In this document: one piece after another, positions 2,751-56,580 of the stretch
Numbering within the stretch: the stretch's first letter is position 1
How the letters are laid out: every line of letters starts with the position of its first letter
Assembly: GCF_964355755.1 (NCBI RefSeq)
Contig: NC_092677.1
Span: 19,924,101 to 19,988,100, forward strand
Direction: 5' to 3'
Length of the DNA stretch: 64,000 nt
From: Antedon mediterranea
Taxonomy: Eukaryota; Animalia; Echinodermata
Program-made: the position numbers and the translations under genes
The notes under the pieces: generated by a model
What the model was told of the DNA's origin: nothing
The model's input: only the letters and a program-made list of their open reading frames with translations
Database searches by the model: none

Positions 2751-3266
2751 TAGGGAGGTTTCGCAATCTTACGAATACGATAACCAAAACGGATACGTCA
2801 CGCACACGTATTCGTTTTTCGTAAGCCAGTAAAAATCTGTTTCGCATGGCAACAAAATATTGAGGGCGCCGTCCGAAATATGAGTGCGGTAAATTTGAGC
2901 GAAGCGCAGGTACGTGTTGCTTGGTGCTTGGCTGCCGGCCTAGGCCTAGCGTAACATCAAAGCGAGTGAGGACTTTAAAAACTGCTATTTATCAAAATTG
3001 ACCTGGCATTTTAATAAATTAGTTTAGTAAATTACTTTCAATAAAAGTATAATTATATTATAATCATGAATCATTTCTGATTCAAATGCAAAATGTGCAA
3101 AATAGATCAAAAACTATACTCGTTTTGTAGTTACGAATATGACTGGTGATATTCGTCAACACGAATACGCTTTACGAATATGAAATGGGGATCAGCTCAA
3201 AAGTTTCACAAATGTGTGACGTATCCGTTTTCGTTATCGTATTCGTAAGGTTGCGAAAGCTCCCTA
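2751..3266. mobile_element. MITE with ~35-bp terminal inverted repeats (TIRs); possibly PIF/Harbinger-ISL2EU-like, superfamily uncertain
   Basis: TAGGGAGGTTTCGCAATCTTACGAATACGATAAC ... GTTATCGTATTCGTAAGGTTGCGAAAGCTCCCTA; inserted in the CR1 remnant. Confidence 0.75.
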
Positions 3267-3668
3267 CTATTCCTGACTTATCATCCCGCTTCTCTGGCCC
3301 CGAATTGGTTACTGTGAAATTCTCAACAGATATAAAATCTTATTTACGGCGCCTGGATATCTGCAAGTCTCCGGGACCAGATGGATTACATTCAAGAGTG
3401 CTTAAGGAACTAAGTAGTGAACTTCGCCATATTTTACAAGTTATGTTTTTAAAATTAGTGGAGAATGGAGTATTACCAAATTCGTGGAAACAAGCCAAAG
3501 TAGTGCCAATTTTTAAGAAAGGTAAAAAATCAGACCCCATAAATTACAGACCAGTCAGCCTTACATCTATAATATGCAAGACCATAAAGATGTTTGTTAG
3601 AAATGTCTTGATGAATCACATGGAAGTTAATCACCTTTTTTCCACCCATCAACATGGCTTCACTCCTT

Positions 3669-4962
3669 CAGGGAAAAATTTCATGGCAAAATTTTGAATA
3701 GCAATAATTGCCAATCAATTTGAAAATTGATTAGAAATTTCAATACATTTGTGTAGCATTTTGTTTGTGTATTTAGAAAGTTATTGTATTTTATATAACA
3801 ATTTGGTAATTACTTAAAAAGGTTGAAGTTAAAAATGTCGCACATTATCCAATGTGCAGGCCAGCAGTATACCAGTAGGCCTGATATTCTGCCCGGGCTA
3901 AGCTTAAATGAAATGTGTGTGGTGCGTCAAGGTACCCTAACTACTGTACTGAAACATGGTATGCATCCAACTAGCCTGGCTCTCATTACAGCATTGGTCG
4001 AAACCAACACATATTATTGCTTTTATTACAAGGTTGAACATATAATATGTGCAAAATGTATGTTCATACTACGAAATTTCGTTATGGATTGGAATTTATG
4101 TTTATTTAAGTAACTTGCTTCCTGGGAAAATATAGGTACTGTATGCTCACTGTGTTATGTTATTTCTGTTGGTTACACTTTGGCACACAGCATTGTTTAC
4201 CGTATTGCTTGAAAGGTGATGCATGCCCCATGATGATGGAACGATTTGCACGGCATGCATTTTGCTGCCCTCAATTATTTAAAAGTAAAAACATGCATGT
4301 CGTCGATCTTTAAAAGAATAATTATATCTCTACTACTTTTCGATGAAATAAACCAAACAACGTAAGTGACGGTTCTTGACTAAAATTTGGAGGCTTCAGA
4401 AGAGCCTGCGATGTCTAGACTAGACTATGTAGCCTTACACTAGTTTTTTATTTTTATTTTATTCAATCGAAACCAACAGCAATAATTACCGCCACTAACA
4501 GGTTTGATACAAACAAAGCCAGGACTGTTAAAAGCACCTTGATCGGTCCGAACATTGATCAAGAGCTTCTCTTGTCCAGTGCCCACCTTGACCAGAGGAA
4601 AGTCATAAGCCAATATGATGTATAAAGGCAGATACTAGATGCAGGGGTTGCCAAAAGAGTCAGCAGTGCTGATTTCAAATGCCTAACAGGACCCCAGCTC
4701 CATATAAAGCACCCTATATTCCCAGATGGTGTCCCATCCAAGCTCTAACCAGGCTCAACGTTGCTTAACTCTTAAATCTGACGAGAACCAGTGTTTCAAC
4801 GTGGTAAAGCCGTATTAAGGTACCTAGGCCTAGGTCTGGCCTATAGCTAGCCGTTGTTCATTGTTGTATCACGAAACCATGCGATCCATTTCAGTAATCG
4901 CGTAGCAATTGTTTTATTTTATGTCGCGATTTGTGATGCGATACTGGCGAAATTTTTCCCTG
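3669..4962. mobile_element. hAT-like non-autonomous element
   Basis: TIRs CAGGGAAAAATTTC / GAAATTTTTCCCTG interrupt the CR1 HGF-R codons. The TSD is degenerate. A related end occurs at ~55490-55508. Confidence 0.7.
4444..4814 (-). mobile_element. 5S rRNA-derived SINE (SINE3-like): 5S head at 4709-4814, body, A-rich tail
   Basis: The reverse strand reads TACGGCTTTACCACGTTGAAACACTGGTTCTCGTCAGA...AGTTAAGCAACG...GGTTAGAGCTTGGATGGG...CTGGGAATA, a degenerate 5S. It is followed by ~245 bp of body and AATAAAAATAAAAATAAAAA. Confidence 0.75.
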
Positions 4963-5646
4963 GGCTTTAGATCAGGTTGTTCATGTAGTTTTAGAACAAT
5001 AGACCAAATGGATTGAAGAGGGTGAATGTTTTGATTGCATCTTTCTAGATTTCAAAAAAGCGTTTGACAGTGTACCAAATGAAAGGCGTACGGCATTGGA
5101 GGAAATTTATTAAAATGGATTAGAGCATTTATTTCTTGACGGACACAACAAGTGGTGTTAAATCGAGTTCATTCAGAAAGCCTGAGAGAGTTAGTAGAGG
5201 AGACCCACAGGGCAGCGTGCTTGGTCCTGCACTGTTCAATATATTTATTAATGATCTCCCTAAAAGAGTTTTTTGCAAATGATACCAAAATGTACAACTT
5301 GGTAAACAGTGTGGAAGAATCAAATGGATTACAGGAAGATCTGAATAAATTATTTGCATGGTGAGAGAAATGGCTTCTCCTTTCAACCTAATAAAATGTA
5401 AAATTATGCATTTTGGAAGAAAGAATAGGAAAGTTGTCTATCATATGGGCACTGATCAAAGGAAAATTCCAATTCAATCAGTGGAATCAATAACAGATTT
5501 GGGAATCATACTTGACAACAAATTGTCCTTTGGATTACATGTTGCACAGAAGGCTTCTATGGCAAATAGAAAATTAGGAATGATAAAATGAATGTTTCAT
5601 TATCTCGATAACCATTCTTTCATGCAGCTGTATAATCAATCCCTTT

Positions 5647-15592: not shown

Positions 15593-18154
15593 GGGGCGCA
15601 GGTCAACTCGGCCCTAAACCGTCTAGGCCAAAGTCAAGTCGGCCCCACGGCAAGTCGGCCCCAAGTCAATTCGGCCTCAAGTAAACTCGGCCTCAAGTAA
15701 ACTCGGCCTCAAGTCAACTCGGCCTCACGTCAACTCGGCCTCACGTCAACGCGGCCTCAAGTCAACTCGGCCAAAAACTAATCTGTCAACTCGGCCTCTA
15801 AAAAGTATGGAACGCAAAAAGTGCTAATATAGTAATTCATTTATTACAATGGCAGGATATAGTACGGTATGCCTACATAGACGAAATAAAACCGAAATGT
15901 CAATGTAAATTGTTTAAATGTTTGTTAGATCTATTTTTTGATACAAGGATGTTCCCAGAAAGAATCGAAATATTCTTAGAAGGCCCATTATATTATTATA
16001 GATATTATTAGATTAATAGAAATACAGTAAAATAATTTTTTTTTTTTTGTGTATATATCCTCTCTCAAATTATTAGCAATATGTTACGGTCAAAGTGAAT
16101 AACTATGTGACATTAAAATGGTATATTACAGTAACAAAATCTTTCACACATTTATATTTTCGGGGGTACAATGACGATGTCAATAAAACTGAAGAGATTA
16201 TGGAAACAAATTCGGAATGTTCTGTCATGTTAAAGTTCTATTGCAATTGTGCGCTATTCAAATTGTTTTTATTACTTTTGTGATTTGATTATATTGGAAT
16301 ACATCTTATGTATGGGAAATTAATCTAAAACACACTGAAGAAATCGTATTTTTATTTTGTCAAGCAAAAACTAAAAAAACATCTTGTTTGAGTCCTAAAC
16401 AGCGGAATTCCTAAACAACATACTATGCATTCTCATCTGTTTTTTTAACACCCACCGCGCCCTGTATTGTTCAATAAAATTGATCACCTAAAGGGGCATT
16501 CCCACAGTACCTGTTCCGTTTCGCGGAACGAAAGACGGCGCCGTTTTTTTCAACGTGACGAGCGCCGCTCTCCGTTCTGTTGTAAACACTCACACCTGTT
16601 CCGTTTTGTGACGTATTCCGTGACATAAAATGGCAGCCGTTTCTGGATGGTCATCGGATGATAGTGAGGAAGAAATTATTCTTTCCGCTATAATTTTAGC
16701 CAAAAGAAGGAAAAGAAAATGGGTAAACGAGGTCTGTTCCGAAAGAAAGAAGTTTGGTAAATTTGAAAAATTGGTAAAACGTAACTGGCGACCAATGAAG
16801 ACGAATTCTTCAATTATTTTAGAATGACGCTTCACCAATACGGTCAGTTCAATTAAAGATGATATTACAAAACGGGGCACAAGATTCCCGATGATAGTAA
16901 CAACACACACCATGACAAATTCCATGAATCCATAATTTAATACATTAAAATCACAATCACATCCCCTCGTGATCAGATGTCTTCCAATTCCCGCCGCACT
17001 TTTTTAACTTCATGACCCTTGACATAATAAACTAAAAATTATGAGCGATCTGTGAATTCTGTTTTTCACCGGCCGTTCATTTTTCACGGAACAGATTTGG
17101 TGTAAACGCTGCTATTGTTTTAACGCTTTTCGATTTTCTAACAAAACGGTGCCGTTCTCTGTTCCGTGAAACGGAACAGGTGTGAATGCCCCTTTAGTCA
17201 TGAGAATATACAGTTATTTAGCCAAATAACAGTTAATACAAACGTCAGTATCATGTGATACTTTGTTTGAAAGAACAATACCTTAAAATTAAGAGAAATA
17301 ACAACATGGACTGTCATAGAAGCAAATTTCTCTCTTCCCATGGTGTACCATATTAATTATGAATAATTATGAAGTAGAAACGAAATGAAAATAAAAATGT
17401 CATACAAAAAAAAACCGTAAGGCGTGCCTATTTGAAAATAATGCACATTCATGTTTGGGTGTGTGTGCATGTAACCTATACCCATAATGCTTATACAATT
17501 TGTATTCTTGCCTTTTGATTTGTTATGATTTTAATGTTATTTTATTCTTTTTATATTGATGTACTGTAACAGTTGTAGACCGATAGGTATATTGTTTAAA
17601 TATTATTCATTAAAATGTATTCTTCGACAGTTATTTCTGTATACAAAATGTGAAGAAATATTTATTTATTTATTTCAAACAATATAAATAAATACTACCT
17701 ATCAAAAACGAAAAACGATCAGGCCCAGTGTGTTATAATTTATATTGAATTTGTCGTTTTATTTCGTCTATTATGTAGGTCTATTATGAACATCTTTAAG
17801 TCTAGACTTGACAACTATTTTCGGCTAGAAATGGAATCTAATAGGCACTAGCCTAAACTATTTCCATCAAACATTAAGTGTAAGTGTAAGTGTCCTAGTC
17901 CTAACCGTACTGTGATGTTTATCTTGCCATTATAATATTAACTACTATATAGGCACTTTTTTTGTTCCATAGTTTTTAGAGGCCGAGTTGACGGATTAGT
18001 TTTTGGCCGAGTTGACATGAGGCCGAGTTGACGTGAGGCCGAGTTGACTCGATGCCGAGTTGACGTGGGGCCGAGTTGACTTGGGGCCGAGTTGACTTGG
18101 GGCCGAGTTGACTTTGGCCGAGACGGTTTAGGGCCGAGTTGGATCGAATTCACC
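15593..18154. mobile_element. Fold-back non-autonomous DNA transposon with ~17-bp subterminal arrays (GTCAACTCGGCC...) at both ends
   Basis: The array at 15601-15800 is mirrored at 17975-18140, and the inverted homology extends ~250 bp. GG...CC ends are flanked by TA. Confidence 0.75.
16492..17193 (+). mobile_element. PIF/Harbinger deletion derivative retaining the transposase N-terminus
   Basis: TAA|AGGGGCATTC ... GAATGCCCCT|TTA. ORF 16630-16827 (RRKRKWVNEV...FGKFEKLV, then frameshifted DEFFNYFRMT) resembles the N-terminus of HARBI1-type transposases. Confidence 0.82.
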
Positions 18155-18800: not shown

Positions 18801-19139
18801 TTATTTTTAGATTTTTTTGTCTATGAAATAACGCTTATATTCCGTTTTTATTTTAGTAATTAATTTTATTAATGGTATTAATTTTGTAACATATATATAT
18901 TGTGTCTATAATAACAAAAGAATAAATGCTAGGGCCTACATGCAAGTCAGGATACATCAAAGCATGAACCAATACAAATTCACCCCTCTTTTTATACAGC
19001 AGTATATGCTCTCCGTTAGACTTGCCCCAAGTCTGTATTGTTTTTTTTTTTATTTATTTGTTTTTATTTCGACCGCGATTTTTGTCTGAAAATTACGAAA
19101 GCCTATTAGGGCCAAAAAAAAAATTATATTGCTTTCACA

Positions 19140-19677
19140 AATTCGAAATAACGAATTATTAATTCGTTTTTTCGAATTATTAATTCGTTATTTCGAATTT
19201 ATTTAAGTAATTTGAAATTTCGAATTAATAATTCGAAATTTCGAATTATTAATTCGAAATTTCGAATTATTTATTCGAAATTTCAAATTATTAATTCGAA
19301 ATTTCGAATTATTAATTCGAAATTTCGAATTATTAATTCGAAATTTCGAATTAGTAATTCGTTATTTCGAATTAATAATTCGAAATTTCGAATTAGTAAT
19401 TCGAAATTTCGAATTAGTAATTCGTTATTTCGAATTAATAATTCGAAATTTCGAATTAGTAATTCGTTATTTCGAATTAATAATTCGAAATTTCAAATTA
19501 GTAATTCGTTATTTCGAATTAATAATTCGAAATTTCAAATTAGTAATTCGTTATTTCGAATTAATAATTCGAAATTTCAAATTAGTAATTCGAAATTTCA
19601 AATTAGTAATTCGTTAATTCAAATTTTTAATTCGTTATTTCGAATTAATAATTCGAAATTTCGAATTAATAATTCGA
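19140..19677. repeat. Subterminal array of 21-bp units with palindromic core AATTCGAAATTTCGAATT (~25 units)
   Basis: Directly visible; variants include AATTCGTTATTTCGAATT and AATTCGAAATTTCAAATT. Confidence 0.95.
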
Positions 19678-19742
19678 CCTCTGCCCTTTCTAATGACATC
19701 CCAACCATCCCGGATTACTTTAGCTAATGCAATCTGGTCACC

Positions 19743-21104
19743 ATGCGTCCTGAAAACCATTGGATTAGATTATATTTCAATCGTAGCTTAAATTATCAAG
19801 AGATTATTGAAATGTTAGCAGAAGATCATGATATTTTGATAAGTAAACGGACATTAAAGCGAAGGCTGAAAAAAATGTGCCTTAGTCGAAGAAAACGGCA
19901 TTCTGACGAACTGGAAGTCGCTGCGTTCATTGAAAGCCAATTACAGACGTCAGGGATGCTACATGGGTACAGGTGGATGCACATTCGTTGCACACAAAAT
20001 GGGTTAAACATAGATAAAGAGACGGTCAGAATAATTTTAAACCTTCTTGACCCAGAGGGTGTCGAAGCAAGAAGGAGACGACGACTACACAGAAGAATTT
20101 ATCATGTACCTGGCCCAAACTATATCTGGCATATCGACTCGTACGACAAACTTAAGCCATACGGCATTTGTATAAATGGCTGTATAGACGGATACTCTAG
20201 ACACATAATATGGCTAGAAGCTTACTTTACTAGCAGCAATCCAAAAGTTATAGCCGGCTATTACGTAAATTCTGTTCGCCAAAAAATGGGTTGTCCAAAG
20301 TCTATTAGAACAGATTTCGGAACTGAAAATTCTATTGTTGGTCCAATGCAACAATTTCTTTGTAATGAGAACAGCAGTTTTATACAAGGAACAAGTCAGC
20401 ATAATCAACGAATTGAGAGTTGGTGGGGCATTCTCAGAAAACACTTTACTCAGTGTTGGATGGACGTCTTTAAACAACAAAAGAATGACGGTAGATATGA
20501 TGGAGGTCTTATAGACAAATCTTTATTACAATTTTGTTTTATGAAAATTATCCAGGTAAGCAGTACAGCAATTACATTGTGTGCTATGCATTATAGTCCC
20601 CAAGTACGACAATTATAATAATAATTTGGACTTTCGCAACAATTTGAAAAGCAAACAATATTAGCCTAGAATTAAATCACTCCTCTTTTATTTACGATAT
20701 TGTTTTTTTTTTCACGGTCTAAACTGTCATTAACTATTTGTTTTTACTGTACTGTATTATATTTGCCTTTTTTAAAGGATGAACTGGACACGGTTGCAAA
20801 TGAGTGGAATGCCCATCGCATCTCAAAATCGAGAAATAGCCATGGTCCGTTTGGACGCCCGACATTGATGTACAATGTACCATACTTATTCGGGGGACAA
20901 GAGTGTATTATTCCCGTTGATGTGGCTAAAGTTGAAGTTTGTGAAAGTGAATCCATCTTCAAAAGCCAGATTCCATGCGATAAGGACGTGTTCGACTTAT
21001 GTTCCATATTCTTGGAAGAAAAGCAGCTATCGATGCCGAAAACATGTGATGAAGGTTTGCAGTTATACAGCAGTCTTAGAAATATGTTTCTTGACGTCAT
21101 CTGA
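19743..21104 (+). CDS. IS3EU-type DDE transposase (integrase-core family), 379 aa; exons 19743-20555 and 20778-21104
   Basis: N-terminal HTH-like region (YQEIIEML...ISKRTLKRRL) and HGYRWMH. Catalytic motifs WHIDSYDKL (D), RTDFGTEN (D) and NQRIESWW (E). A phase-0 intron CAG|GTAAG ... TTTAAAG|GAT joins to DELDTVANEWNAHRI...GRP. No stops or frameshifts. Confidence 0.9.
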
Positions 21105-21427
21105 TCAAATGCCACAGCAAGCATGTGATATCACATTATCATGTTATAAATCGTTTTTTTATTAATTAATTGTCGCTGTGATATTATTTCCAATACAAAG
21201 TTAGAATTGCAACGAACACAATGTAATGAATACAATATAAACAATTATATTTATAGTATTATGTTCAGTTGGTGATGATCAGACAGAATTGTGTTATGTA
21301 GCTGTACAATACAGTAAAACAGATGTAATTTAACAACAACATTTTGTTTATTGAAATTTTAATAACAGTATTTTATTTCTGAAACAATTACAAAACTGTT
21401 GGCTACTAAAATTTGATCATAATTTAA

Positions 21428-21774
21428 AGATATATTGTCCCCCTGAAAAAATATTTTTTTAAATTGTTTTGTTGAATATGTTATTTTAATGTCACATAAT
21501 AGTTATTCACTTTCACAAAAAAATGGGTTTGAAAAAAAATTATTTACCTAAGAAAACTGTAATTTAAAGCAAATAAATGGTCAAATTGGCTGGAAGACAA
21601 TGAGTTTTGGGGTAATTTAACTGTTTAACTGTTTTGTCTTTCTATAGGTGAAATAATTTTTTTTTCTCGTTTTTTTTTCTTATGGAAACAACTTCATTAA
21701 AACTGCAAAATGGCCTATTCAAAGTCCGATTTAAAAAATCTTTATTCTTCATGATTTTGGGGGACAATACATCT
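21428..21774. mobile_element. Kolobok-type MITE inserted at the TTAA overlapping the HECT gene stop codon
   Basis: TTAA|AGATATATTGTCCCC ... GGGGACAATACATCT|TTAA. Confidence 0.82.
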
Positions 21775-24487
21775 TTAAAGTTTTCCAAAACCCTTGCCAT
21801 TTATGATGGCTTCCTCCATTAGAGTTGTGAATTCCAATGGATCGTCATATCCACGGGGGAGGTGTAAATCCAACCCACATGTACTGGCTGTCGGGTAACC
21901 TCTCATCTTTCGCTCCTTACTAAAAAAAATTATATGTATCTGGTTGCTAAAACCAAGAGGGGGAATTGAGTCAGCACCAGTAACAAATGTTAGGAAGTCT
22001 CCAAGGGATGTCTTGGTCTTTTTATCTAAAATGCATAAAAATAAAAATGTTAAACATTATGAAATAAAAAATGTATACTTTTTTTTTACCATTTACCCTT
22101 TCACCGCTCTTATTAGCATACTTTCGTTTTGGTACAAGGAATTACAAATAGGGTAGGCCTATAGCGGTATAGTTCTTCAAGGTAAAGTTTGTTCGTGAAT
22201 ACACACAACCTTGTTTCTCTCTCGAAGGGCTATATTATATAACTGTAAGGAAATACGGTATTGTATCGTTTCGTTTCGAGCCCTGGGGGTACCTAATTTT
22301 ACTTTGGATATTCATTCTCAGCCCGAAGGATGGGGGGGGGGGGGTATCTCAACACCCCTCCCTCCCCCCTGCATGTAACGCCCCATCTAGAGTTTACTTT
22401 AGTTTACATTAAAATAAAGATATAAATACTGTATACAATACCTTCCGACTCTTGTAAGAAAACCTCCAGACAATACACTGTGTCTTCCTCTTGACTTCGT
22501 AAATTGGAGCCTGCCTCTGAATATTCAACTGTCATTAGTGTCTTTAGTACTTGCCGTGTCAGTCTTTTCCCCTCCAGAGTGAAAAGTGGGACAAATTGGT
22601 TTGGGTAATCTCTTACGTTTTCCCAAAGTACTCCCAATCCTTCAGTGAACTGTCGGATTTCACTATGTGTTCTAGATTAGGAGAAAATGAATGCACCATG
22701 TAAATTATAATCACAATTAGCAAATAAAATGTGTTCACATTCATACGACCTGTACAATAATTCCAAGCCTTGATTTAAAGTTCAGCAATTTTACAGAAGA
22801 ATCACCCAGAGCAGCCGTCAACCGACAAATAAAAACCAAAGGAGAATTTCATTTGGATGGATTTCGATGGATTTTCCTTCACGATGATTTTAAATCCTAA
22901 TGCCAAAATGTTTCTCCTGTCCTGAACTAGACTTAACCCCTTGTGATTTTCCTTAAGGAAATATGCATAATGATACCGTACTATTTCTTGGATTAAAAAG
23001 GGCTAGTAACTAATTGTTTACATACATACATATCTATATCTAGTTTACCCGCGTCTAACACTGAATAACCATGTGCTTAAAATATATTATCATTATTAGG
23101 CCTGTTACGTTACCTGTAAAACAAAAAATGCTTTAACAGACTTGACACGACTTGTTGTTTTTGATTGAAATCCGAGTTATACAACGTCATGACTCCTTGA
23201 TCTGCCGCCCAATCCGATAATTCATGTGAAATAGTACGGTACTCATCCGTCGTTTGGCAATCTGGATAAAAAGATACTGTAATCAAATTCTTTACAAATA
23301 TACAAAAATTAAATACAAATTAATTGTAAGCCTATCAGGCCTACACGTGTGATAAAAGACAATGTAGGTCTACACGTTTTGCCGCGTGTATTATAGGCCT
23401 ATTAGGTTTGGGTTAAATAAGTTGATTGTGGTTACTGTAGGCCTACGTGTTTTAAAAAATAATCAGACCGTAAATAACAAAATTTATGTTTAAAAAAATG
23501 TAAAAAAAAAATTGTATTAATTTAACTTTTGCTATTTTAATAGTAAAAGTTAAATTAATAACATTTCTTGTCCCATTTAAAAATGTTATAAATAAAAAGT
23601 CCGATAGGTAACGTATAGAATATTTTAACATAACACATATTCCCATGAGTTATTTGATGCCTTGTTAGAATGGTAAACGAAAATCACTTGCCTTTGCTAT
23701 CTTGCCTCGGACATCTATGTCACACACACTATTAACGTCCGAAAATCCATTTGACTTTAACCCACACATTAGCTTGAAAAGCTTTGGTTGCGAAGTTGGT
23801 AAGCCCGGACCTCCATGCAATAGACTCCATGCAACGAAACTACCAGCCCTAGCATATTTGCGTTGCTCTAATAGCTCTATGTTATGGGTAAAATTTTGTT
23901 TCCCCACTTCTCCTTCCAGCACTCCCAACTGTTCGCAAACTGCTTTCATTAGTAGTCTATATAAATCAAAGTGCACAATAAGAATTATCAGAAAAGCGCA
24001 ACCAGTATACATTGTTTAAAATAAATATTGCTCAAAATGTTACTGTAACAATAAAATACACACATACATACATACGTGCGTATACACTGGGCATACGAAA
24101 CCAAAGATACAAAAAAATACAAAAAGTAACCAACAACGTCCAAACCAAAAAGTATGAGGGATACGCCTTTGTCATTAACTAGATTTTTTGTCTACAATTG
24201 CATTCCGGCCAGTACCCCAGCCAAGTGCGAAGGCTTGTTTCGCACGGTTCAACATCCGTCAGGGGGTATCTGGAACCCGCCGTATCTGGAACCCGCCCCC
24301 GCCTGTTACGCCACTGTATATAGTGTTAATTATAGGGAGTTTTATAAAAAAAATTATACAAATAGCACTATAGTACATTGCAAGAATAATCACCAAGTAC
24401 TAACAATATAAGACAATGTTTAGTTGAGCATGCACATAGATATCAGTAATGTGTCCAATACAGGTCCAAACCTGAACATTTCTCTTG

Positions 24488-27400
24488 TAGACAGGTTCCA
24501 TTTCTCAAAAAACGGCCTAGAAAACGAATCAAGAAGCATTTTTGGGTAGAAGCTGGGATCCACTTGATTTAGGATATTTCGACCTCGCTGATTACGAATA
24601 TGGCGGATCCCAAGCGAAATTCGGCAATCTAAGCCCTTAATTTGCATAATTAAAAATGGCGGCCATTTTTTATAATTAACCTATATCTCGAGAACCACTA
24701 GTCACAGATAATTAATTTTGGTGTCAAAATGTTTTAAATATATGTTTTTATATTCACTTTAATGACACATTTTCTCAAAAAATGGATGCAAGTCTTATTT
24801 CTGACATTTTGACCTTTGAACTTGATTTTTCGTATCTCAGTAACCAATAATCGGAGAGACACGAAATAGGGCTCAAACTGTTCAGAAACTATACATTCTT
24901 ATTTATTATAATGAAATGTTTTTACAAAAAATGGCCGATTCTACAACTATTGACCTTTGAACTATTAGTCAAATATAATAATATAAAAATAATATAACTT
25001 TGAAAATTGTGGTCTTATGAATTTTTTTTTCTTTTTAAATTGTTTAAAACATGTGTGTTTCTATCCAGTCTAATGGCATATTTTGTACAAGAATGGCCGA
25101 TAGTATGGTTATTGACCTTTTAACTACAGCATAGGCCATTGTATACTAAATATAATATAATTTCATAACTATGAAATTATTTATACACAATAATAATTAG
25201 TAAAATTATAAAATTCACTGCCATCAAATATGATGTGTTATGATTTATATAGATTAAAAAAAAAATTTGAATACGCAAGTTACATTTGTTGAAATTTGAA
25301 ATTACCTGCCATCAATATGATGGAGTATGATTATAGATTTTCTAAAATGTGAACATGTCAGCTACATTTGGAAATTACCTGCCATCAATATGATGGATTA
25401 TGATTATAGATTTAAAAAAGAATTTGAACACGTAAGCTACATTTGAAAATTACCTGCCATCAATATAATGGATTATGATTATAGATTTAAAAAAGAATTT
25501 GAACACGTCAGCTACATTTGGAAATTACCTGCCATCAATATGATGGATTATGAAAAATAATTTGAACACGTAAGCTACATTTGAAAATTACCTGCCATCA
25601 ATATGATGGATTATGATTGTATAGATTTAAAAGAAAATGTGAACACGTAAGCTACATTTGGAATGAACATGTTAAGGGCATCAGTTAAGATCATTCATGC
25701 AAAGGTTTCCGTCATCTTTAGCGTTGTTACAGCGGCATAAAGCTGTACATGGTAGTTTTGACTTCTTGCACCTACATCTATTGGTTATGCATCGTGTCTT
25801 GCATCCACAATAAATCATCTCTAACGAAGCAGTAGGAATAGCTTCATTTTTCAGAAGCACTGGTTGAAGTTTACCATTAGATAGCTCCCAACCAAAATAT
25901 GTTGGTGATGGCAAGTGCTGGATTGGCGATACAGCTTTTTTCCATACGAGTGCTTGGAAGTGTGCTCTTTTTATATGTTGGTGCACGGCATCGCTTGTGG
26001 AGGTAATGCCTCTGGTTTTTTTTGGTTAAAAGCCTAACTTCATTGGTACTTTTAACTTGACCAACACCGTAAACGTAGCAAATGAATCTTTCCGATTTCA
26101 TAATAACTTGGTCACTGATAGGTTTTCTCCCAGGTCTTTAATTTGTTCATACTTTATTTTTAATACTTCCCATGCCGATGCCTTTGAGTGACCACTTAGA
26201 TATGAGCAGTGAAGATTTAAATTACTGTATGTATGTATTAATGTAATTTAACTCTTCCCTGGATATGAGTAGTATCGCATCCACTAATAGTGTGGAATGG
26301 AATCAGTGCTTTTGTAGAACCCTCGGGCAAGGCTTGAAAAATGTCTTTTATAGATACTTTCTTTTTTTGGATGTCCCTGTCATCATCCATTTGGATACCA
26401 TGCTTTGGTAGTGAGACACTAGAATCACTAGTACGTCTGTATCCCTAGAAGCAACTACAACTGTGTCGTATCGGACATTGGCAGCATGACAAGTCTCGTG
26501 TCCGATTCTTCATGGTCTGCGACCAGAGACAACGTATTCGTGTAGACTTTTGATGATTTAACAACTGATTCTTTCATAAATCCACCAGCTGTGACAATTT
26601 CTTTGTCTATAGGAGCTTGACGAATCAACTCCTATGATAGAAATCGTGTCAGATCTGCATTATTATCTTGTAATGCCAAAAAGTTTGACCAGCAATTTGG
26701 CAGCGGTATTTCACCACTTTCTATAATTCGACGAATTGGTCTCTGTGTTTTGGTTCATCTTTGTCTGGTGGTGTCCTTTATCGACAGTTTTAAGTTAGGC
26801 ATGCCATGTTTAAAAAAAACCAGAGCCATTACCTCCAACAAGCGATGCAGTGCACCAGCATATAAAAAGAGAACACTTCCAAGCACTCGTATTGAAAAAA
26901 GCTGTATCGCCAATCCAGCATTTGCCATCACCAACAGATTTTGGGTGGGAGCTATCTAATGGTAAACTTCAACCAGTGCTTCTGAAAAAATGAAGCTATT
27001 CCTACTGCTTCGTTTTAGATGATTTATTGTGGATGCAAGACACGATGCATAACCATATAGATGTAGGTGCAAAAAGTCAAAACTACCATGTACAGCTTTA
27101 TGCTACTGTAACAACGCTACAGATGACGACGGAAACCTTAGCATGGGATGATCAAAACTGATGCCCTTAACATGTTCATTCCAAATGTAGCTTAGGTGTT
27201 CACTTTTCTTTCAAACCTATAGGCCTACAATCATAATCCATCATATTGATGGCAGGTAATTTCCAAATTTCCAAATGTAGCTGACGTGTTCAAATTGTTT
27301 TTTAATTCTATAATCATAATCAATCATATTGATGGCAGGTACTATACAATCATAATCCATCATATTGATGGCATTTAATTTCCAAATTTCCAAATGTAGC

Positions 27401-28412
27401 TGACGTGTTCAAATTCTTTTTAAAATCTATACTCATAATCCATCATATTGATGGCAGGTAATTTTCAAATGTAGCTTATGTGTTCAATTTCTTTTTTAAA
27501 TCTATAATCATAATCCATCATATTGATGGCAGGTAATTTCCAAATGTAGCTGACATGTTCACATTTAAAAAAATCTATAATCATACTCCATTATATTGAT
27601 GGCAGGTAATTTCAAATTTCAACAAATGTAACTTGCGTGTTCAATTTTTTTTTTATCTATATAAATCATAACACATCATATTTGATGGCAGTGAATTTTA
27701 TAATTTTACTAATTATTATTGTGTATAAATAATTTCATAGTTATGCAATTATATTATATTCAGTATACAGTAGGCCTATGCTGTAGTTTAAAGGTCAATA
27801 ACCATACTATCGGCCATTCTTGTACAAAATGTGCCATTAGACTGGATAGAAACACACATGTTTTAAACAATTTAAAAAGAAAAAAAAATTCATAAGACCA
27901 CAATTTTCAAAGTTATATTATTATTATATTATTATATTTGACTAATAGTTCAAAGGTCAATAGTTGTAGAATTGGCCATTTTTTGTAAAAACATTTCATT
28001 ATAATAAATAAGAATGTATAGTTTCTGAACAATTTGAGCCCTATTTCGTGTCTCTCCGATTATTGGTTACTGAGATACGATAAATCAAGGTCAAAGGTCA
28101 AAATGTCAGAAAAAAGATTTGCATCCATTTTTTGAGAAAATGTGTCATTAAAGTGAATATAAAAACATATATTTAAAACATTTTGACACCAAAATTAATT
28201 ATCTGTGACTGGTGGTTCTCGAGATATAGGGTAATTATAAAAAATGGCCGCCATTTTTAATTATGCAAATTAAGGGCTTAGATGGCCGAATTTCGCTTGG
28301 GATCCGCCATATTCGTAATCAGCGAGGTCGAAATATCCTAAATCAAGTGGATCCCAGCTTCTACCCAAAAATGCTTCTTACATCATATTTCAGAGGAAAT
28401 AGAACTTGTCTA
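24488..28412 (-). mobile_element. Academ (XPG-nuclease type) internally deleted fold-back element
   Basis: TTG|TAGACAGGTTCCATTTC ... GAAATAGAACTTGTCTA|TTG (3-bp TSD, TAG..CTA ends). Removing it restores the HECT motif GGPT-REMFR. Inverted arms are ~24531-26022 and ~26812-28379, with ~70-bp internal tandem repeats. Confidence 0.82.
25681..26800 (-). pseudogene. Academ protein C-terminal remnant (XPG/FEN-like nuclease plus Cys-rich CXC zinc finger); inverted partial copy at ~26812-27160 (+)
   Basis: Frameshifted motifs DHEESDTRL and VVASRDTDVLVIL, then HQHIKRAHFQALVW...FGW...CGCKTRCITNRCRCKKSKLPCTALCRC. Confidence 0.8.
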
Positions 28413-31293
28413 TTGTAGGTCCTCCGGTATCCATAGCTTCTTCTCCAACAAATTCGCATTGTACCTTTTTTCGGCAGTTAAAACCATCTTGCCCGTACGC
28501 GTATAGGATCGAACGTAAAAACCGTTTTCTGTGGCAAATAACCTTCTGATATTCATCAACTTGATGATGTCTCTGGTAATTGGCGAGGATGTCCTTAATT
28601 GTTATATCTACTTGATCTTCGCACCTAAAATGATATTATCAACCGTTAGTGTTGACGATAAATCATTAATGTCTTATTTGAACTGTTAAAACCATTTGGT
28701 GGGGGTAGGGTTTTGTTACCAGATAAGTTACCATCATTCACAAATTAATCAGTCGAGTCTCGTACGTAGGTGTAGTATAATGACTACAACATTCAGCCAA
28801 TTTAGGGTTTAACAGGGGGTGGGGTGGTGGAAGGTGGTGGGGGGGGGGGGGGGGGGGTTGTTCGGACACAAAACCGAACCATGAACCCCCTTGGCTACAG
28901 GCCTGTTTAAGCGTCTCCTGAAACATTTGGTACACAAACCTTGTTTCCTGGGATTCCACTAAACTATTTTTAATAGCTTGTTGTAGTTGTAAGTCTTCTT
29001 CATCGTCTGTATCGTCAGAGTCTGAACATAAATTCACATATGATGTATATGCTGACCTGTAAACAAAAATAAAATTAAAATTAAAAATCCTTAAAAGAAA
29101 GTTTATATGCATAACAGAATACTTCTCATACAAACGATCACGGGTAATGTTCGGAAAATTTTAATCGTTGTTCGTCAATCACACCTTACACAGCATTGTG
29201 GCATATTTCGAATAATAAGTTTAACTCACTCATTTTTCGATTGAGTGGATGTTGAAGGCATATGCGATTGACTTGTCGAGGCTAAATTCATCATTGAGTC
29301 AGTAGGTCTATCAGGTACCTGTAAATGGAGCAATTCATTATAATGCTGGAGTTTACTTTATGAATATTGTATTATAAGTGCACGATGAGTTATTTCACCT
29401 TTCTGAACAAGGTTATTTACTACCAGAAAAGATGGACTCGGTCTTCTGTTAATTAACAAAAATGAATCACACTAGTATATCATTGAGTTGTACCACAATT
29501 ATACAATGTATAACTTACGGGTTCCAATTACAATTTTAAATATTACCTACCTTAAACGATACGGTTGGTGTGTCGGGCTGTACAAGTGGGCGTGTTGGAT
29601 GGTCTATTTCTACCAACGGTACATCATTATCCCCGTCGTCGTCATCAGATGACTCGCCACTTCTCTTTCGTTTTACGGCTTCATCTTTTCTGCCAACTGG
29701 AGTGGTTTGAAGGTAGAACCTTAGAACTGCCATTTTGCATTCAGCATACAGCTCCCCAACGCTCATGTCTTTTTTCAAGGGATGTTGTCGAAAATCACAT
29801 AGCTTGCAGTTGAATTCGCTTAGCTTTCCTTTAAATGACAGTCCATCCTTAAAAAACAAGTTAGTGGCAATTTCTAACAGTTCATTATAATTTGTGGACT
29901 TTGGCACTATTAGCTGTCTTGTTCCTCCTCCTTTTTGTTTGCGAACTTGTTTGAAGCATTTTGATTCAGCGTCGTAGTCCAACCACCCTATATCGATTTT
30001 CCGATTTGTTTTTTGGGCATTTTTGTTCCCTAACAGCGTGCTTGAGCGCGTATCCCAAAGATTTCCGTCCTCTTCCACGTCCTCTTCATCGTCCCTTCTC
30101 TTGTTCAATTTTTGTTTGAGTTTTTGTAGAACTGTTTCTTTTTTACTTTGCGTCTTTTGTCTTTGCAAAATTCGCGTACAGCAATTCTGTCCCCAAGGAG
30201 AGGAATAAATTTCGAAAGGTCTTCGTCAGTCATGGCTACTATAACTACTGAATCAATCTGCAAAAACAAAAGTTGATTAACATCATGCATTACCGGTACA
30301 TAGTCACATTAAGGGGTCGAGTGAACGTTTCAATATATTTGATTAGGCATACCAATGATTGATCTAAACATTAAACCTTTTAAAATGTGTGCGTACTGTG
30401 TAAAACATCGTGGCATGCAAGCGACCCGTATGTGCTACGTTAAATTATGAATTAACAGATTAGGATAAATCATGTATATGTACATATATCAATGTATAAT
30501 ATGTACATAAAATTATATCAATTTTAATATTGATTAGACAAACACTACAACTATAAGGGAAACAGTTTAGAAAACTTCAATATTTGGGAAAATTACAGAT
30601 TTCACAGTACAAACCCCCTTTTTACGCCGCTTATTAGGGGGTTCACAAAAACCCTAAACATTCCCCCTCTCCCTGGATTCGCAACTAGGCGTCAACCTCA
30701 TACAACAAAGATGCAGAATAGGACTATAGGCCTATATTAATCTTATAGAGGATACAATATTTAATGACAAATATAATTACAGTATAATATTTAGTATTCC
30801 CATGATTTAAGCATCATAGACATTGTTTTTTTTACCTTTTCATCCCTCATTCTCTGTATGTACTCCTCTTCAATTCCTCGTTCCTCCATGTATTCATATA
30901 ACTTATCCATCGCCGTATCTTTCGTGAATTTAATGTAGGGCCTATGGTTTTATTCCCCAGTAGAGCTTCTTGTACCGCCAACCGAATTAAGCCCTGATGA
31001 TTGCACAAACAGACTTTGGTAAGCGAATGGCTACTTTTTTGCGTAAAAGTTGGAGGCTTCCCCACTATATTATCATGGGGTAATTCAAGTGTATAGCTAT
31101 AGCGACTTTAGCCTAGTATAAAAGTACAGTTATTGGTTAGTAATATAACATTAATGTATTCTATTTTTTAAAAACTTATTAAGATTAAATTAAGGTATGA
31201 TTAAGTGTTAATGTTAATAGCTATCCGTAATGTGTGTACTCTCCAGTAAAAAAACGGAATACACAGGGATGTGCCCTCGCTATTGAAATTTAC

Positions 31294-31546
31294 TGGGTGC
31301 TCAAAACAGAGACCTCGAAAACAAAGATCAGAAACACGAGACCCATGGGTCTCTGTTTTGGAGATTTTAAAACCAGAGACCCCCCACCCCCACCAAAAAA
31401 AAAACTTCTCGATATTACATTATTTAAGGGGTATCTGTTTTCCAGAAAATTTCGAAAACAATCGAGAAAATCTCGAAAACAGATACCCCCCTATATAACG
31501 TAATATCAAGAAGTTTTAGTGGGGGTCTCTGTTTTCGAGACACCCG
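31294..31546. mobile_element. Small MITE with an imperfect ~8-bp TSD (MULE-like)
   Basis: AAATTTAC|TGGGTGCTCAAAACAGAGACC ... GGTCTCTGTTTTCGAGACACCCG|GAATTTAC. Confidence 0.6.
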
Positions 31547-34037
31547 GAATTTACCATAACACTTGATTGTTTTTGCAATTAAATTCACGTTTTGTTTTAT
31601 ATGTATTGTTTCCCAATTACTTATACTTCTAACAGTTATGAAATGACACTGTCAAATGTAGCAAATCTGTCAAATAAAAACTTGATTTCCGACGAGATAA
31701 CACACATTTACGTGATGCGATGTATGAAATAATATGAAGCTTTCATGCCTAGTTATTTATAATCCGACAATTATTAGTGGAGATAATTTTAAAAACCGTT
31801 TAAAAACAGTGATTTTAAACAAGGTCGCGTTTCGGGATGCACAACGCGCGTGTCGCTTATTTACGGAATACAATTGATATGTGCCCCATTTGCACTCATT
31901 TAATATCCTTCATTGAAATGGGACATACCGTAACTTACATAAGGTTTCGATACTATAACTAACTAACTAAGTTTTATTATGATAAAAGAAATATAGGCCT
32001 AACTTAATATCGGTATGCACGCACATGGTTGACGTTGAGTTGTGCTAAATTACGAATAATATTATAGTATTGGAATTGATATTATCGAATGAAATTATTA
32101 AGACTAATTCATTTAAATACGTAAAATTAATCAAAGTAATATTTATTTTGAAGGATAAATATGTATACATATATTCTTTCTATTAAAGTTAATGTTAAAA
32201 CTGGTCATACAGTTATTAATTGCTGACTATTTGCCATAGTCCTACAGCGAAGCCTAAAACTTTAAACATTCAACTAAAATAATATGTTAATTCATTTTCG
32301 ATGATTGAGTTGAGTTCAACAAAAACAAAAGATAAAACGTACTTACTGAAATATAAAATATGCTGGAATTTCACTGGAACCGTAGGATAAAACAAACTAT
32401 TTATTTTGTAAGTTTGTATGAAGCAGCAATGGTGATGGAAATTAATCTTACGTATTTATAGTTTTAATAAGTAATTGCTTAACCAATCAAATTGTCGGAA
32501 AATGATGTAAACCTAACATCAATCAAATAAGACAGTGAATTGGTTTTTATCAACCCGGCACTTTTTTGGGCATGATTCATGGTTTCCCTTCCATTCCATA
32601 TTTACATTCCTCGTGGTTTATATCATGTCCCTTATATCCTTGTCTTCATTTTCCACATCCTCTAATCCATCATATGCCTATGTTTACATTCCAAAAAATG
32701 ACACTCATGGAATCACTCTAAACTTATGAGTTGATCACTTCTTGTAATGAAATAGATGCGATTTGTAATTATATAATAATAAAATAACATCAGTACGTAT
32801 ATTGTTCGTTTTACTATACTAAATCTTCAATTTTAAACTATTGTACAATTCTTGATTTAAACTGTTTTGTTTTTACTTAGATGGTCTGTGATTAGTTTTT
32901 TTTGTGTTTAAACTACACCGTACTTTATCATCTAGGAGCGTATCCGGTGGGTTGGGTGGGGGGGGGGGGGATGCTGTCGTTCCCCCTTCTTTTTTCAATA
33001 AAACAAATTGAAATTGAAATTGAAATTGAAACGGTCGGCGAATCAAAATTTCACAAACTCACATTAAGGTTGACACCCCCACCCCTCTTTATATTCATTG
33101 TTGGCTAATCTATCATCCCTTGTCATTAATTTAGAATGTTTACACTCTTATGTTTGACAATAAGGTTGAAAGTTAAGAAAGTATTGTCATATTGATTCGA
33201 ATATCAATACAGTATCAAGGGCGGGTCTACTACCTTGTCATCTGCCATTTGGCAAGTCCATGAGGGGGCGGGTCAAAGAATTTAAAATAGAAGGGGAGAG
33301 GGAGCAGAGGTAATGTTTCTCAATATGACATGTTCATTTCAACTGAGAAGCAAACAAAAAAGAGGAAGGTAAAATTTCCCGGCTATAAGATTTCAATTTC
33401 CAACAACATTTGTCATTTGGCGTCTCGGACGTAAATTGAATCCGCCCCTGAGTATTGTACGTTTTGTATACCATTTGTTTGAAAAAAGAATCCGTGTACT
33501 ATAGTAGGCCTACAGGAATTTTTTTGAAAATGGCCAAAATATCACCTTTTTACAAATACAATTATTATGCGATAATATTGCCATATGCGTATATTGTGTT
33601 ATCAACATGTTATAGAGCTATAGTTGCATTCCTCTATAATATTTTTAAATAACTGGTGCAAGACATAATCTGTCAGTCCATGGCAGTATTTTAAATATTA
33701 AATGTATCATATTATTTTCATTGACAGAATATCGTAATCCCATAAACTCGTTATGATCGATGAAATCAACGGCTAAGCTGCAACGACTTGTTGCTATTGT
33801 AATGTATCAGAGTTATATACAATTCCAATATTTAACGTTACCACACACCAACTGAGTTCAAAAATTTGCCCCACAAAAGTCCAGTAAGAAACTGACCAGA
33901 TGTTTTTCATGAATACTACTAACCAATTAGCTCTCTAAAATAACAGTTTTAGAGAACTTTCCCATCGTAAAACAATTCAAGAATGACAGTTTTTAAGTAG
34001 AGAATTGACAACGATATCCATCATTGAGATATACAAT

Positions 34038-34640
34038 TTTTCACGCTGCTGCTCTAGCCCGCTACGTCCCATTAGGACTACTCAATCAGAAGCTAAAGCA
34101 AGCAGCAGTTATAGTTCTAAGGACAGACAGTTTTGTGAAAATGGAAACTCCACTATAATTTATTGATTCCAGCTGCTACAGTAGACCCAAAAAACGTCTG
34201 GGAAAGAGTCTATTAGGACATGTCATGCTAAAATTACAAATCCCTAAGCATTTCTGGTATATTCACTGTCAGATATTCATTGAATTATTATCGAAACAGT
34301 CCATTAAAGTTTGTGTTTGTAATAGGATACTTCACAATTGAAATATCTAGGGTGATGAAGTGACCCCCAGATTTGACCTTAGCAATAAAATTAACTAAAG
34401 TGACAGAAATTGAGTATTCACTTCTGTAACAAAAAAATAATATTTATTCACATATAAAAAAAGAAAAGAAACACAAAAACCATTGTCTGACAGACAATTT
34501 AAGTATTTGTTGCTTTAAATTACATTTTTTTCAGGTAAAATAACTATTATGTGACAATAAAATGACACATTCAAAAACATTTGAAATAAAAAATATTTTT
34601 CAATATGCGAGCAGCGTTTTTTGTAAGAAATATTTCTTGT
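34038..34640 (+). repeat. Dispersed ~600-bp repeat with a near-identical inverted copy at ~61560-62157
   Basis: TTCACGCTGCTGCTCTAGCCCGCTACGTCCCATTAGGACTACTC ... GTAAGAAATATTTCTTGTT matches the reverse complement in DYNC1LI intron 6. Confidence 0.85.
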
Positions 34641-35085
34641 TCAAACTACTTTGTCTTGCCTATACCTAGATCGTGGATCAACTAGGACCAATTTTATATC
34701 TAAGCTCAAAGACGATTAATGATGACATATGCAATGAACAGAGAAGCCGATATACCCCCAGTCTCAACAGAGCCCAGAGACACCTCACTGAGCCACTTCA
34801 TCATAGGCACACCTACAGAGACACACCTCATTCACAACATCATCATCTATCATCACCGATCGACTGATACCCTGTAGTAGTATTTATCGTATCGTATCGT
34901 ATATACGAACTCAATTGCAACCAAGCGAGTAAAGTCTCAATACCGGGCTCATCAGTCTAAAACGTCTCCAATTATATTACACTATATTTAAAATTGATCC
35001 ATATGAATTTAAAAACAAATGTATGTAAAGAGGCCCTTAATCTTACTCTGGCGGACACTTTAGTTAAATACGATATTAATAATAA

Positions 35086-35737
35086 TTTTCTGAGAATGCC
35101 CCAACAACTCTCAATTCGTTGATTATGCTGACTTGTTCCTTGTATAAAACTGCTGTTCTCATTACAAAGAAATTGTTGCATTGGACCAACAATAGAATTT
35201 TCAGTTCCGAAATCTGTTCTAATAGACTTTGGACAACCCCCGGGACAACCCATTTTTTTGGCGAACAGAATTTACGTAATAGCCGGCTATAACTTTGGGA
35301 CTAGCCATATTATGTGTCTAGAGAATCCGTCATTTATACAAATGCCGTATGGCTTAAGTTTGCCGTACGAGTCGATATGCCAGATATAGTTTGGGCCAGG
35401 TACATGATAAATTCTTCTGTGTAGTCGTCGTCTCCTTCTTGCTTCGACACCCTCTGGGTCAAGAAGGCTTAAAATTATTCTGACCGTCTCTTTATCTATG
35501 TTTAACCCATTTTGTGTGCAACGAATGTGCATCCACCTGTACCCATGTAGCATCCTTGACGTCTGTAATTGGCTTCCAGTTCGTCAGACTTCGACTAAGG
35601 CACATTTTTTTCAGCCTTCGCTTTAATGTCCGTTTACTTATCAAATTATCATGATCTTCTGCTAACATTTCAATAATCTCTTGATAATTTAAGCTACGAT
35701 TGAAATATAATCTAATCCAATGGTTTTCAGGACGCAT
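35086..35737 (-). pseudogene. Inverted, truncated, frameshifted copy of the first ~700 bp of the IS3EU transposase (right arm)
   Basis: ORF fragments 35492-35737, 35287-35553 and 34972-35253 nearly match the protein from 19743 onward, with several short deletions and a 10-bp duplication. Confidence 0.92.
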
Positions 35738-35802
35738 GATGACCAGATTGCATTAGCTAAAGTCATCCGGGATGGTTGGGATGTCATTAGAAAGGGCAGA
35801 GG

Positions 35803-36257
35803 TCGAATTATTAATTCGAAATAACGAATTAAAAATTTGAATTAACGAATTACTAATTTGAAATTTCGAATTACTAATTTGAAATATCGAATTATTAATT
35901 CGAAATAACGAATTACTAATTCGAAATTTCGAATTATTAATTCGAAATTTCGAATTATTAATTCGAAATAACGAATTACTAATTCGAAATTTCGAATTAT
36001 TAATTCGAAATAACGAATTACTAATTCGAAATTTCGAATTATTAATTCGAAATTTCGAATTATTAATTCGAAATAACGAATTACTAATTCGAAATTTCGA
36101 ATTAATAATTTGAAATAACGAATAAATAATTCGAAATTTCGAATTAATAATTCGAAATTTCGAATTATTAATTCGAAATTTCAAATTACTTAAATAAATT
36201 CGAAATAACGAATTAATAATTCGAAAAAACGAATTAATAATTCGTTATTTCGAATTT
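35803..36257. repeat. Right-arm copy of the 21-bp palindromic array (~21 units)
   Basis: Mirror of 19140-19677 with a different unit number and order. Confidence 0.95.
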
Positions 36258-36381
36258 GTGAAGGCAATATTATTTTTTTGTTGGCCCTAATAGGCTTTCG
36301 TAGAAAATACATCCAAACTCAAGTAATACATACACGTATGAAACGCCATATGTGCAAAAATATTTATATTTTTACTAATAC

Positions 36382-55600: not shown

Positions 55601-56349
55601 TAATAAGCTGAGAACTGAACCTCCCTTTAAGGAAAATGGTAAACACTTTTATTTTCGGTAGTCAAAGTCAAATAAAATAATTTGGTTTATCAAAAAAAAA
55701 TATAAATTGGCTTCAATTCAATACTAAATTTGCCAGATTTTGATAATAAGAAAGACTAAAGAAATTAATTTTATCGGAAAAACATTGACATTGACATTTG
55801 AGGCGGATGTGCATAATAATAATAACCGATTTATATATCAAAATAAAGAGTATTATAAAGCCTGATAACACGCAACAAAAATTACTCCCACCTGTTATGG
55901 CAGGTGGGCGATCGTGTTTTGAAAATGGGTAGGTGTTTTCTAAAGTTATTTTTAGTGCGTGGATTTCTACTTGCCGGCTTTTGTATTGAAGGATGTAATA
56001 TACTATATGATTTGCAGCATGCTCCAAAGAACATCATAAAGTTGTTTATTTTTGAAAATCAAACATCACAACATGGCCTATTATAGGTTGTTTTGATAAT
56101 ATGGGAGCAATTTAGTCTATGAATGTTAATATGGTGACCTATGTTTTTACTTGGTAGATAACTGTTGAGTGAAGATGTGCATTGACATTTTGTAGTATGT
56201 CGTTTTTGTATTCTAAAACCTAGTTTATGGGGAAGAAAAATAATGCTGTTTTCTTGTGATTTTTGTTCCACAAAAATGAAACCCACTAATTATTTGTTGA
56301 AGCCTAAGATGAACATCAAAATGATGATTATTTTGATTTTTTTTTACAG

Positions 56350-56580
56350 ATATTACAAGATGTGGTGTGTGGCTTCTTGATGGTGATGATGACCACTCTC
56401 GTATGCTTCAATTTGCACTCACTGATGAAAATATAGAAGATGTATTGGTTATTCTGGTGGTAGATATGTCACAGCCATGGAATGTGAAAGCATCCATAGA
56501 AAAATGGTCACAGGCACTAAGTTCGCACATGGATCAATTAAAAATTACACCGCAAAAAATGAAAAATTTAAAACAAAAAT
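56350..56580 (+). CDS. DYNC1LI2: Dynein light intermediate chain, exon 4
   Basis: DITRCGVWLLDGDDDHSRMLQFAL...VILVVDMSQPWNVKASIEKW...; phase-1 boundaries are consistent. Confidence 0.93.

Follow-up and report, generated by a model that had tools for sequence, protein, structure and literature searches.

A predicted HECT ubiquitin ligase gene carried by an IS3EU/GingerRoot-type DNA transposon of Antedon mediterranea

A 64,000-nucleotide stretch of the Antedon mediterranea genome (the window; NCBI RefSeq assembly GCF_964355755.1, contig NC_092677.1, positions 19,924,101 to 19,988,100 of the forward strand; all coordinates below are those of the window) contains a whole IS3EU/GingerRoot-type DNA transposon of 17.2 kb, at 19094..36302 with no strand assigned, in which a gene for a HECT ubiquitin ligase lies tail-to-tail with the IS3EU transposase. 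The head of this ligase is predicted with high confidence to comprise SAM and ubiquitin-like (Ubl) folds. We tentatively favour the explanation that the ligase is the transposon's own host-directed, ubiquitin-reading E3, and put its chances slightly short of even. A first-pass annotation of the same DNA had seen in it the cargo of a transposon and the architecture of a SUMO-targeted ligase; the anatomy that it described is real and has largely been verified, the HECT gene with its catalytic Cys indeed being located within the 17.2-kb element, while the SUMO interpretation over-reached.

Carrier element and ligase gene

The element shares with IS3EU and GingerRoot the TA..TA termini, a 6-bp target-site duplication (TSD) and an rva_4 transposase of the DDE type and IS3EU lineage, all of them found together here; the definition of IS3EU comprises TA..TA ends along with TSDs that usually measure 6 bp (PMC10045372). 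The duplication, GAAAAT, is located at 19088-19093 (plus strand) on the left and at 36303-36308 on the right, and the 20-nt terminal repeat has its sole occurrences at 19094 (plus) and 36302 (minus), with 0 expected by chance; a scan for the TAYGG terminus, giving 198 matches vs 214 expected, was uninformative. The long inverted arm at the left end (19094..20441, plus strand) comprises the terminal repeat, a 21-bp tandem array and the 5' part of the transposase, and the right arm (35086..36302, minus strand) holds a broken, deleted copy of this 5' part, both arms matching at 86% over 1361 columns (19094-20441 vs 36302-35086). The right arm repeats the first 1.35 kb of the left end in inverted orientation, transposase 5' part included, and may represent a right end replaced by a copy of the left one. 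With about 1.2-1.35 kb, and with part of the transposase inside them, these arms differ from the terminal inverted repeats of GingerRoot, which measure 100-150 bp (PMC6839031; PMC10045372).

The transposase (19743..21104, plus strand) is encoded by two exons, 19743-20555 and 20778-21104, and matches Pfam rva_4 with E 1.1e-29. Its catalytic D, D and E motifs are all present, as verified by alignment and with the splice sites checked, and its core corresponds motif by motif, when compared by eye, to those of IS3EU-1_CGi, IS3EU-1_DR, IS3EU-1_TC and IS3EU-2_SK (PMC10045372, supplement). A high-copy element resembling a miniature inverted-repeat transposable element (21424-21778) lies between the convergent transposase and ligase genes and with one end abuts the ligase stop codon.

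The ligase gene consists of nine exons on the minus strand. Exon 1 (30836..30910) encodes the first half of the SAM domain; exon 2 (29551..30257) the second half, a basic helix and the Ubl domain; exon 3 (29230..29318) a Ser/Thr-rich segment predicted to be disordered; and exon 4 (28940..29056, 117 nt) a Y-x-x-Y-V-x-L motif, an acidic tract and a helix resembling a ubiquitin-interacting motif (UIM). The peptides and the 117-nt exon singled out in the first-pass annotation were confirmed on this strand where it had placed them, its motifs being distributed over exons 1-4. The HECT domain (Pfam HECT, E 6e-12, above the cut-off) occupies exons 5-9 (21775..28624, minus strand), of which exon 5 covers 28624-28413 and continues at 24487-24472, exon 6 covers 23956-23692, exon 7 about 23262-23114, exon 8 22671-22442, and exon 9 22025-21775, where the stop codon lies. 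In common with HECT E3s in general it has an N-lobe and a C-lobe with a catalytic Cys, whose codon is at 21877-21879 (minus strand) and whose alignment column is at least 90% conserved, AREL1 being the best solved relative (E 2.3e-5); it is predicted to be a ubiquitin ligase with thioester and transfer activity.

Exons 4 and 5 are joined in one contig of run X5, which bridges a CT..AC gap between 28622 and 28938, with 26 letters on the short side. Other X5 contigs join the last four HECT exons and are attributed to a sister copy because of their substitutions and small indels relative to the window. The status of X5 as RNA is a guess, no run being on record as RNA, and contig depth cannot rank the gene parts by expression. 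The intron after exon 6 starts with GC (23691-23686), as a GC-AG intron, and is backed by the X5 joint 23259-23692. Spliced X5 contigs extend over 21750-23692, NCBI holds three 114-aa models of the C-lobe only (P0007, P0009 and P0010), and a truncated C-terminal ligase transcript is possible. Altogether, the near-identical Antedon mediterranea proteins in NCBI (P0003 and P0005-P0010) form a cluster of seven members, including a 688-aa model that begins in the middle of SAM and reaches the end of HECT.

Three lesions affect the gene in the window, namely two 7-nt deletions and one insertion. The frameshift in exon 2 proved to be real and to consist of a 7-nt deletion, although reads place it behind 30145 and not at 30165, where it had first been located; the 7 letters are present in runs X1, X6 and X7 and are not shown by X5. 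The second 7-nt deletion affects the acceptor of exon 7, near 23256. The insertion is a nested TAG..CTA element (24488..28412, no strand assigned) with a 3-bp TTG duplication, and its empty site is represented by one 632-nt X1 contig matching both flanks; it splits exon 5, and the name Academ is the label of the first-pass annotation. The inverted arms of the nested element measure ~1.5 kb and include 75-bp tandem arrays. Its open reading frame survives in frameshifted pieces that end in a Cys cluster of the CXC-like type (Pfam TCR, E 0.036), and it looks non-autonomous. The window copy is dead. Run X1 provides contigs free of any of the three lesions, and X6 and X7 are also free of the exon-2 deletion; such sister copies or alleles would make the ligase protein.

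Head domains and relatives of the ligase

An AlphaFold2 (AF2) model of the P0003 head, built on a 14-row alignment, reached predicted local distance difference test (pLDDT) values of 85-94 over residues 1-60 and of 91-96 over residues 111-210, while prediction from the single sequence (pLDDT 40.6) was unusable. The SAM-like character assigned earlier to the N-terminus is borne out in this model, where helices spanning residues 2-61 form the five-helix SAM fold. When compared with the tankyrase SAM domain, residues 1-62 gave a VIA-align Z of 8.0 (root-mean-square deviation, rmsd, 2.5; 61 residues aligned), and BICC1 gave Z 7.9; the matches to tankyrase, BICC1 and ASK3 range over Z 7.3-8.0 with 61-67 residues covered, a Z near 8 being middling for a helical domain. 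Pfam SAM_3 was matched merely at E 0.03 and in one of the 14 rows, and two relatives in the cluster carry the UniRef label 'SAM domain-containing'.

The globular block of ~100 residues for which a ubiquitin-like fold had been considered possible is likewise modelled as a beta-grasp domain (P0003 residues 111-215; 29695..30009, minus strand), as indicated by AF2 and fold searches and with no Pfam family assigned. Residues 109-216 matched the ubiquitin-like domain (ULD) of BMI1 with Z 9.4 (rmsd 2.3, 80 aligned, 14% identity), followed by the Ubl domains of USP4/USP15, UFM1 and archaeal ubiquitin (Z 8.8-9.0), RING1B (8.4-8.6) and SUMO1 (8.0). Foldseek placed the SATB1 N-terminal domain on top (E 2.6e-4), and the top 50 structure rows are mostly ubiquitin-like folds, over residues 104-219. 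The Ubl fold class appears solid on the model; assignment to the RAWUL/Polycomb subfamily was dropped, values of Z 9.4, 9.0, 8.9 and 8.8 being tied. At E<=10, none of the four window peptides matched a SAM, ubiquitin or UIM family of Pfam, and in the ESM Atlas the Ubl part matched unnamed eukaryotic clusters alone (cosine 0.94-0.90). Conservation of head-domain residues extends over records from echinoderms, insects and fish.

Conservation counts given here rest on 13 relatives and on metagenome loci, the A2 profile search having returned no relatives beyond the 13. The SAM-Ubl head is common to 11 of these relatives and to metagenome locus L012. Related transposases were found at 43 metagenome loci (28 groups at 90% DNA identity), and an opposite-strand HECT lies downstream at six of them, in 5/28 groups (L004, L012, L017, L019, L023 and L024); where at least 4 kb is available downstream, HECT is present in four loci out of six. 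This recurrence beside related transposases indicates that the ligase is a regular gene of the lineage. At L012, a single open frame of 678 aa (3056-5089) encodes SAM, Ubl and a clade-B HECT (see below) and faces an IS3EU transposase, its head being an independent match to a head profile built from other proteins. A head-domain scan of metagenome contigs gave 230 pattern matches with 0 confirmed, and viral contigs scanned for the transposase yielded none.

A tree of 16 HECT domains separates clade A (P0005, P0011, P0012 and P0013) from clade B (12 rows) with support of 100/100; the fragmentary L004, L017, L023 and L024 were left out of it, and L004 was put in clade A by profile score. The HECT domain of the window ligase is sister to that of P0011 (96/97; 53% identity), whose head differs, whereas the window head is nearest to that of P0014 (48% over 181 aa), whose clade-B HECT barely aligns; the Ubl tree pairs the window head likewise, although weakly (83/91). 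These conflicting affinities suggest that heads and catalytic domains have probably been exchanged. Different, unannotated head domains are also seen on the clade-A HECTs of P0011 (residues 1-140) and P0012 (residues 100-205).

Some relatives carry the automatic NCBI name 'G2E3-like'. Host G2E3 has N-terminal PHD/RING fingers; no PHD/RING Pfam family was detected in P0003 or P0005, and the window ligase is unlike host G2E3 in its SAM and Ubl head as well as in being multi-copy and transposon-borne. No paper joining IS3EU with HECT was found in a literature search that had Repbase Reports and most subscription journals outside its scope, and neither 'HECT' nor 'ubiquitin' occurs in the main texts of PMC10045372, PMC6839031, PMC12730594 and bioRxiv 2021.09.26.461848. 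Repbase entry names of the type IS3EU-1_CGi_2p point to a second protein.

Exon 4 and its short motifs

Exon 4 has AG..GT bounds and, after allowing for the frameshift, a symmetric phase 2-2. It encodes a Tyr-pair motif together with a core resembling a SUMO-interacting motif (SIM) and an acidic tail (29011..29049, minus strand), and then a UIM-like motif in which an acidic stretch precedes L-x-x-A-I-x-x-S-L (28960..29004, minus strand). The patterns used for UIM, SIM, YxxY and the LC3-interacting region (LIR) were general consensus forms, or were written after the sequences had been seen. The consensus scan for UIM (an acidic stretch followed by hydrophobic-x-x-Ala-x-x-x-Ser) matched exon 4 as well as P0011 and L004, and the pattern arose in 2/1000 linker shuffles, or in 1.5% in a looser form, both figures being post hoc; the UIM-like motif pointed out in the first-pass annotation thus appears to be more than chance. 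In P0011, Y-x-x-Y-V-x-L, an acidic run and L-x-x-A-I-x-x-S-L stand directly before HECT, and L004 shows the same layout, with its exon ending in the same phase-2 intron and the following exon ending where that of the window does. P0012 keeps the Tyr pair and the acid without the UIM, and P0013 keeps neither. The conservation by which the two motifs were to be judged is therefore found within HECT clade A (UIM pattern in three of five testable sequences) and is absent from clade B (0/11 linkers); among the 13 ligases with the SAM-Ubl head, one has the UIM, that of the window family.

The Tyr pair seems to be the strongest conserved signal of the exon, YxxY[VIL] being present in 4/15 linkers vs 0.04 expected (post hoc) and additionally in the L004 exon, with the match in P0015 (clade B) maybe due to chance. 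A SIM would neither explain nor require this pair. The LIR was rejected as a finding, its core occurring in linkers at chance level (10 vs 9.75 expected), and the ESM Atlas gave no usable match for the exon-4 region.

Transposon silencing by KAP1/TRIM28 and Panoramix/Su(var)2-10 proceeds via SUMOylation, the background on which a SUMO-targeted ligase had been proposed. Such an enzyme would read SUMO or SUMO-ubiquitin hybrid chains through a RAP80-like tandem, its HECT domain destroying SUMOylated silencing complexes. The order of hydrophobic core, acidic tract and UIM is indeed kept in P0005, P0011 and L004, and a strict SIM is present at another place in the P0012 linker. The SIM-like motif of exon 4 is present as text, but its YVNL core agrees with neither the strict [VIL] SIM, with three or four V/I/L core residues and acid at the flanks, nor the ELM-like patterns and passes only when Tyr is allowed, the relaxed pattern that admits it being found in 196/1000 shuffles and another loose pattern in 11.5%. 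One loose SIM pattern is over-represented among the linkers, clade-B proteins included (7/15 vs 2.38 expected, P 0.0035 uncorrected), but it was one of seven patterns tried, was tuned post hoc and was counted on related proteins, and two ELM-like patterns, which do not match YVNL, showed no enrichment (10 vs 8.2 and 1 vs 1.4 expected).

RNF4, RNF111 and TOPORS, all SUMO-targeted ubiquitin ligases (STUbLs), are RING ligases. Together with RAP80, an existing tandem SIM-UIM reader, they likewise have a hydrophobic/acidic motif beside a UIM in a disordered arm, but several SIMs are described for RNF4 (four) and RNF111 (in tandem; PMC12751084), whereas the window ligase, a predicted HECT enzyme, has a single, non-canonical candidate core. 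The position of this core is kept in HECT clade A alone, SIM and UIM are missing from 12 of the 13 ligases with the same head, and the conserved Tyr pair would be left unexplained. The architecture as a whole does not bear out a SUMO-targeted ligase; given the enrichment of the loose pattern, the SUMO reading keeps a low probability.

Function of the transposon-borne ligase

As a host-directed, ubiquitin-reading E3 of the transposon itself, the ligase would be oligomerised by its SAM domain and would bind substrates through the Ubl domain as an exchangeable part, while the UIM-like helix would hold ubiquitin in cis beside HECT, favouring processivity or chain extension, or would recognise already ubiquitinated targets. 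In other HECTs, ubiquitin is held beside the domain by an exosite (PMC6063350), and UIM biology is treated in PMC7226360. Targets would be those host proteins, active in silencing or repair, by which the element is restrained, not SUMO chains as such. We infer this class of substrate from head swapping, which on a conserved catalytic core would be expected of host-directed effectors, and from the TET/JBP cargo of fungal IS3EU. These TET+ elements carry accessory enzyme genes (TET/JBP, alpha-kinase), one of them opposite the transposase, for which an escape from silencing is proposed; the window element likewise has an accessory gene within IS3EU, but its cargo is a HECT E3 and its host an animal (PMC12730594).

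Several observations weigh against this explanation. Pfam UIM gave no match at E<=10, a search in which HMMER filters drop weak short-motif matches, and the UIM is not essential, since two of five clade-A and all 11 clade-B proteins are without it. Using leave-one-out profiles, the held-out segment was the best non-training match in two of three cases without composition correction (E 0.004 and 0.014) and in one of three with it (E 0.07), and on account of this weak recovery the homology of the Tyr/acidic/UIM segment rests partly on position and intron phase. Moreover, 37 of the 43 metagenome loci are without HECT, mostly because they are too short, but this does not apply to L028 and L038; and the 13 relatives are mostly without genomic context, their multi-copy NCBI records merely suggesting mobility.

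The ligase might instead act on its own transposase, stripping the transpososome from DNA after integration or capping the transposase level. Such a role would agree with the constant tail-to-tail arrangement in which the gene pair recurs. Elements with transposases 39-54% identical to that of the window differ, however, in head and in HECT clade, which would fit a fixed partner less well, and we regard this role too as improbable. A SUMO-consensus site is missing from exon 1 of the window transposase and occurs in 4/19 rows, at a different column each time, leaving a SUMO-dependent version of this role without support. Complex predictions of the ligase head plus HECT part with transposase exon 1 scored 0.00 in two runs without alignments and are evidence neither way.

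More doubtful still is a broader reading, in which a SAM plus RAWUL-type head joined to HECT, with an exon that reads hybrid chains, makes a HECT-type STUbL able to remove Polycomb or SUMOylated silencing complexes from chromatin, as part of a shuffled ligase kit in animal IS3EU. With Polycomb repressive complex 1 (RAWUL domains of BMI1/RING1B, SAM polymers) the window ligase has in common that its top Ubl structural match is the BMI1 ULD and that a SAM domain lies in the same chain; this match is at the 14% identity noted above, and USP4/USP15 Ubl, UFM1 and archaeal ubiquitin lie within 1 Z of it.

Exon 4 might also be an internal regulator, its Tyr-pair helix folding on HECT, or its Y-x-x-L docking the ligase's own or an ATG8-type ubiquitin fold, and its UIM sensing auto-ubiquitination. 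The segment co-varies with the HECT clade and not with the head, its most conserved feature is YxxY-hydrophobic, and Tyr-containing helical linkers autoinhibit the NEDD4-family HECTs ITCH, WWP2 and NEDD4 (PMC6063350). The exon-4 core fits the LIR pattern in P0005, P0011 and L004, but LIR cores are at the chance level given above. This option is given little probability; it is compatible with a host-directed E3 and names no substrate. A captured host gene or inert passenger, whose short motifs would have arisen by chance in a disordered, acidic linker, would suit a copy broken three times and acidic linkers that in most proteins give SIM-like matches in 10-43% of shuffles, but is very improbable, given that the gene pair recurs in unrelated sources, that records from echinoderms, insects and fish keep the Cys and the head residues, that X1 holds a form without the three lesions and X5 spliced contigs of a sister copy, and that no PHD/RING head like that of host G2E3 is seen.

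Many multi-copy animal HECT genes named 'G2E3-like' or 'uncharacterized' are probably transposon genes, and two unannotated ligase parts are defined here. One is the SAM and Ubl head, shared by records from echinoderms, insects and fish; the other is the Tyr/acidic/UIM exon, which is frame-neutral and goes with a single HECT clade. Should the targets of these ligases be host proteins of silencing or repair, animal DNA transposons would have a ubiquitin-based counter-defence of their own.

Elsewhere in the window, a 600-bp repeat is present as inverted copies at 34038-34641, within the IS3EU element, and at 61558-62157, which are 96% identical. A separate element at 15599-18140 has inverted arrays of 16-bp units with short ORF remnants inside, LINE reverse-transcriptase remnants occur at 3143, 39563 and 62525, and an exon of a dynein light intermediate chain gene lies at 56337-56666 (Pfam DLIC, E 6.9e-26).

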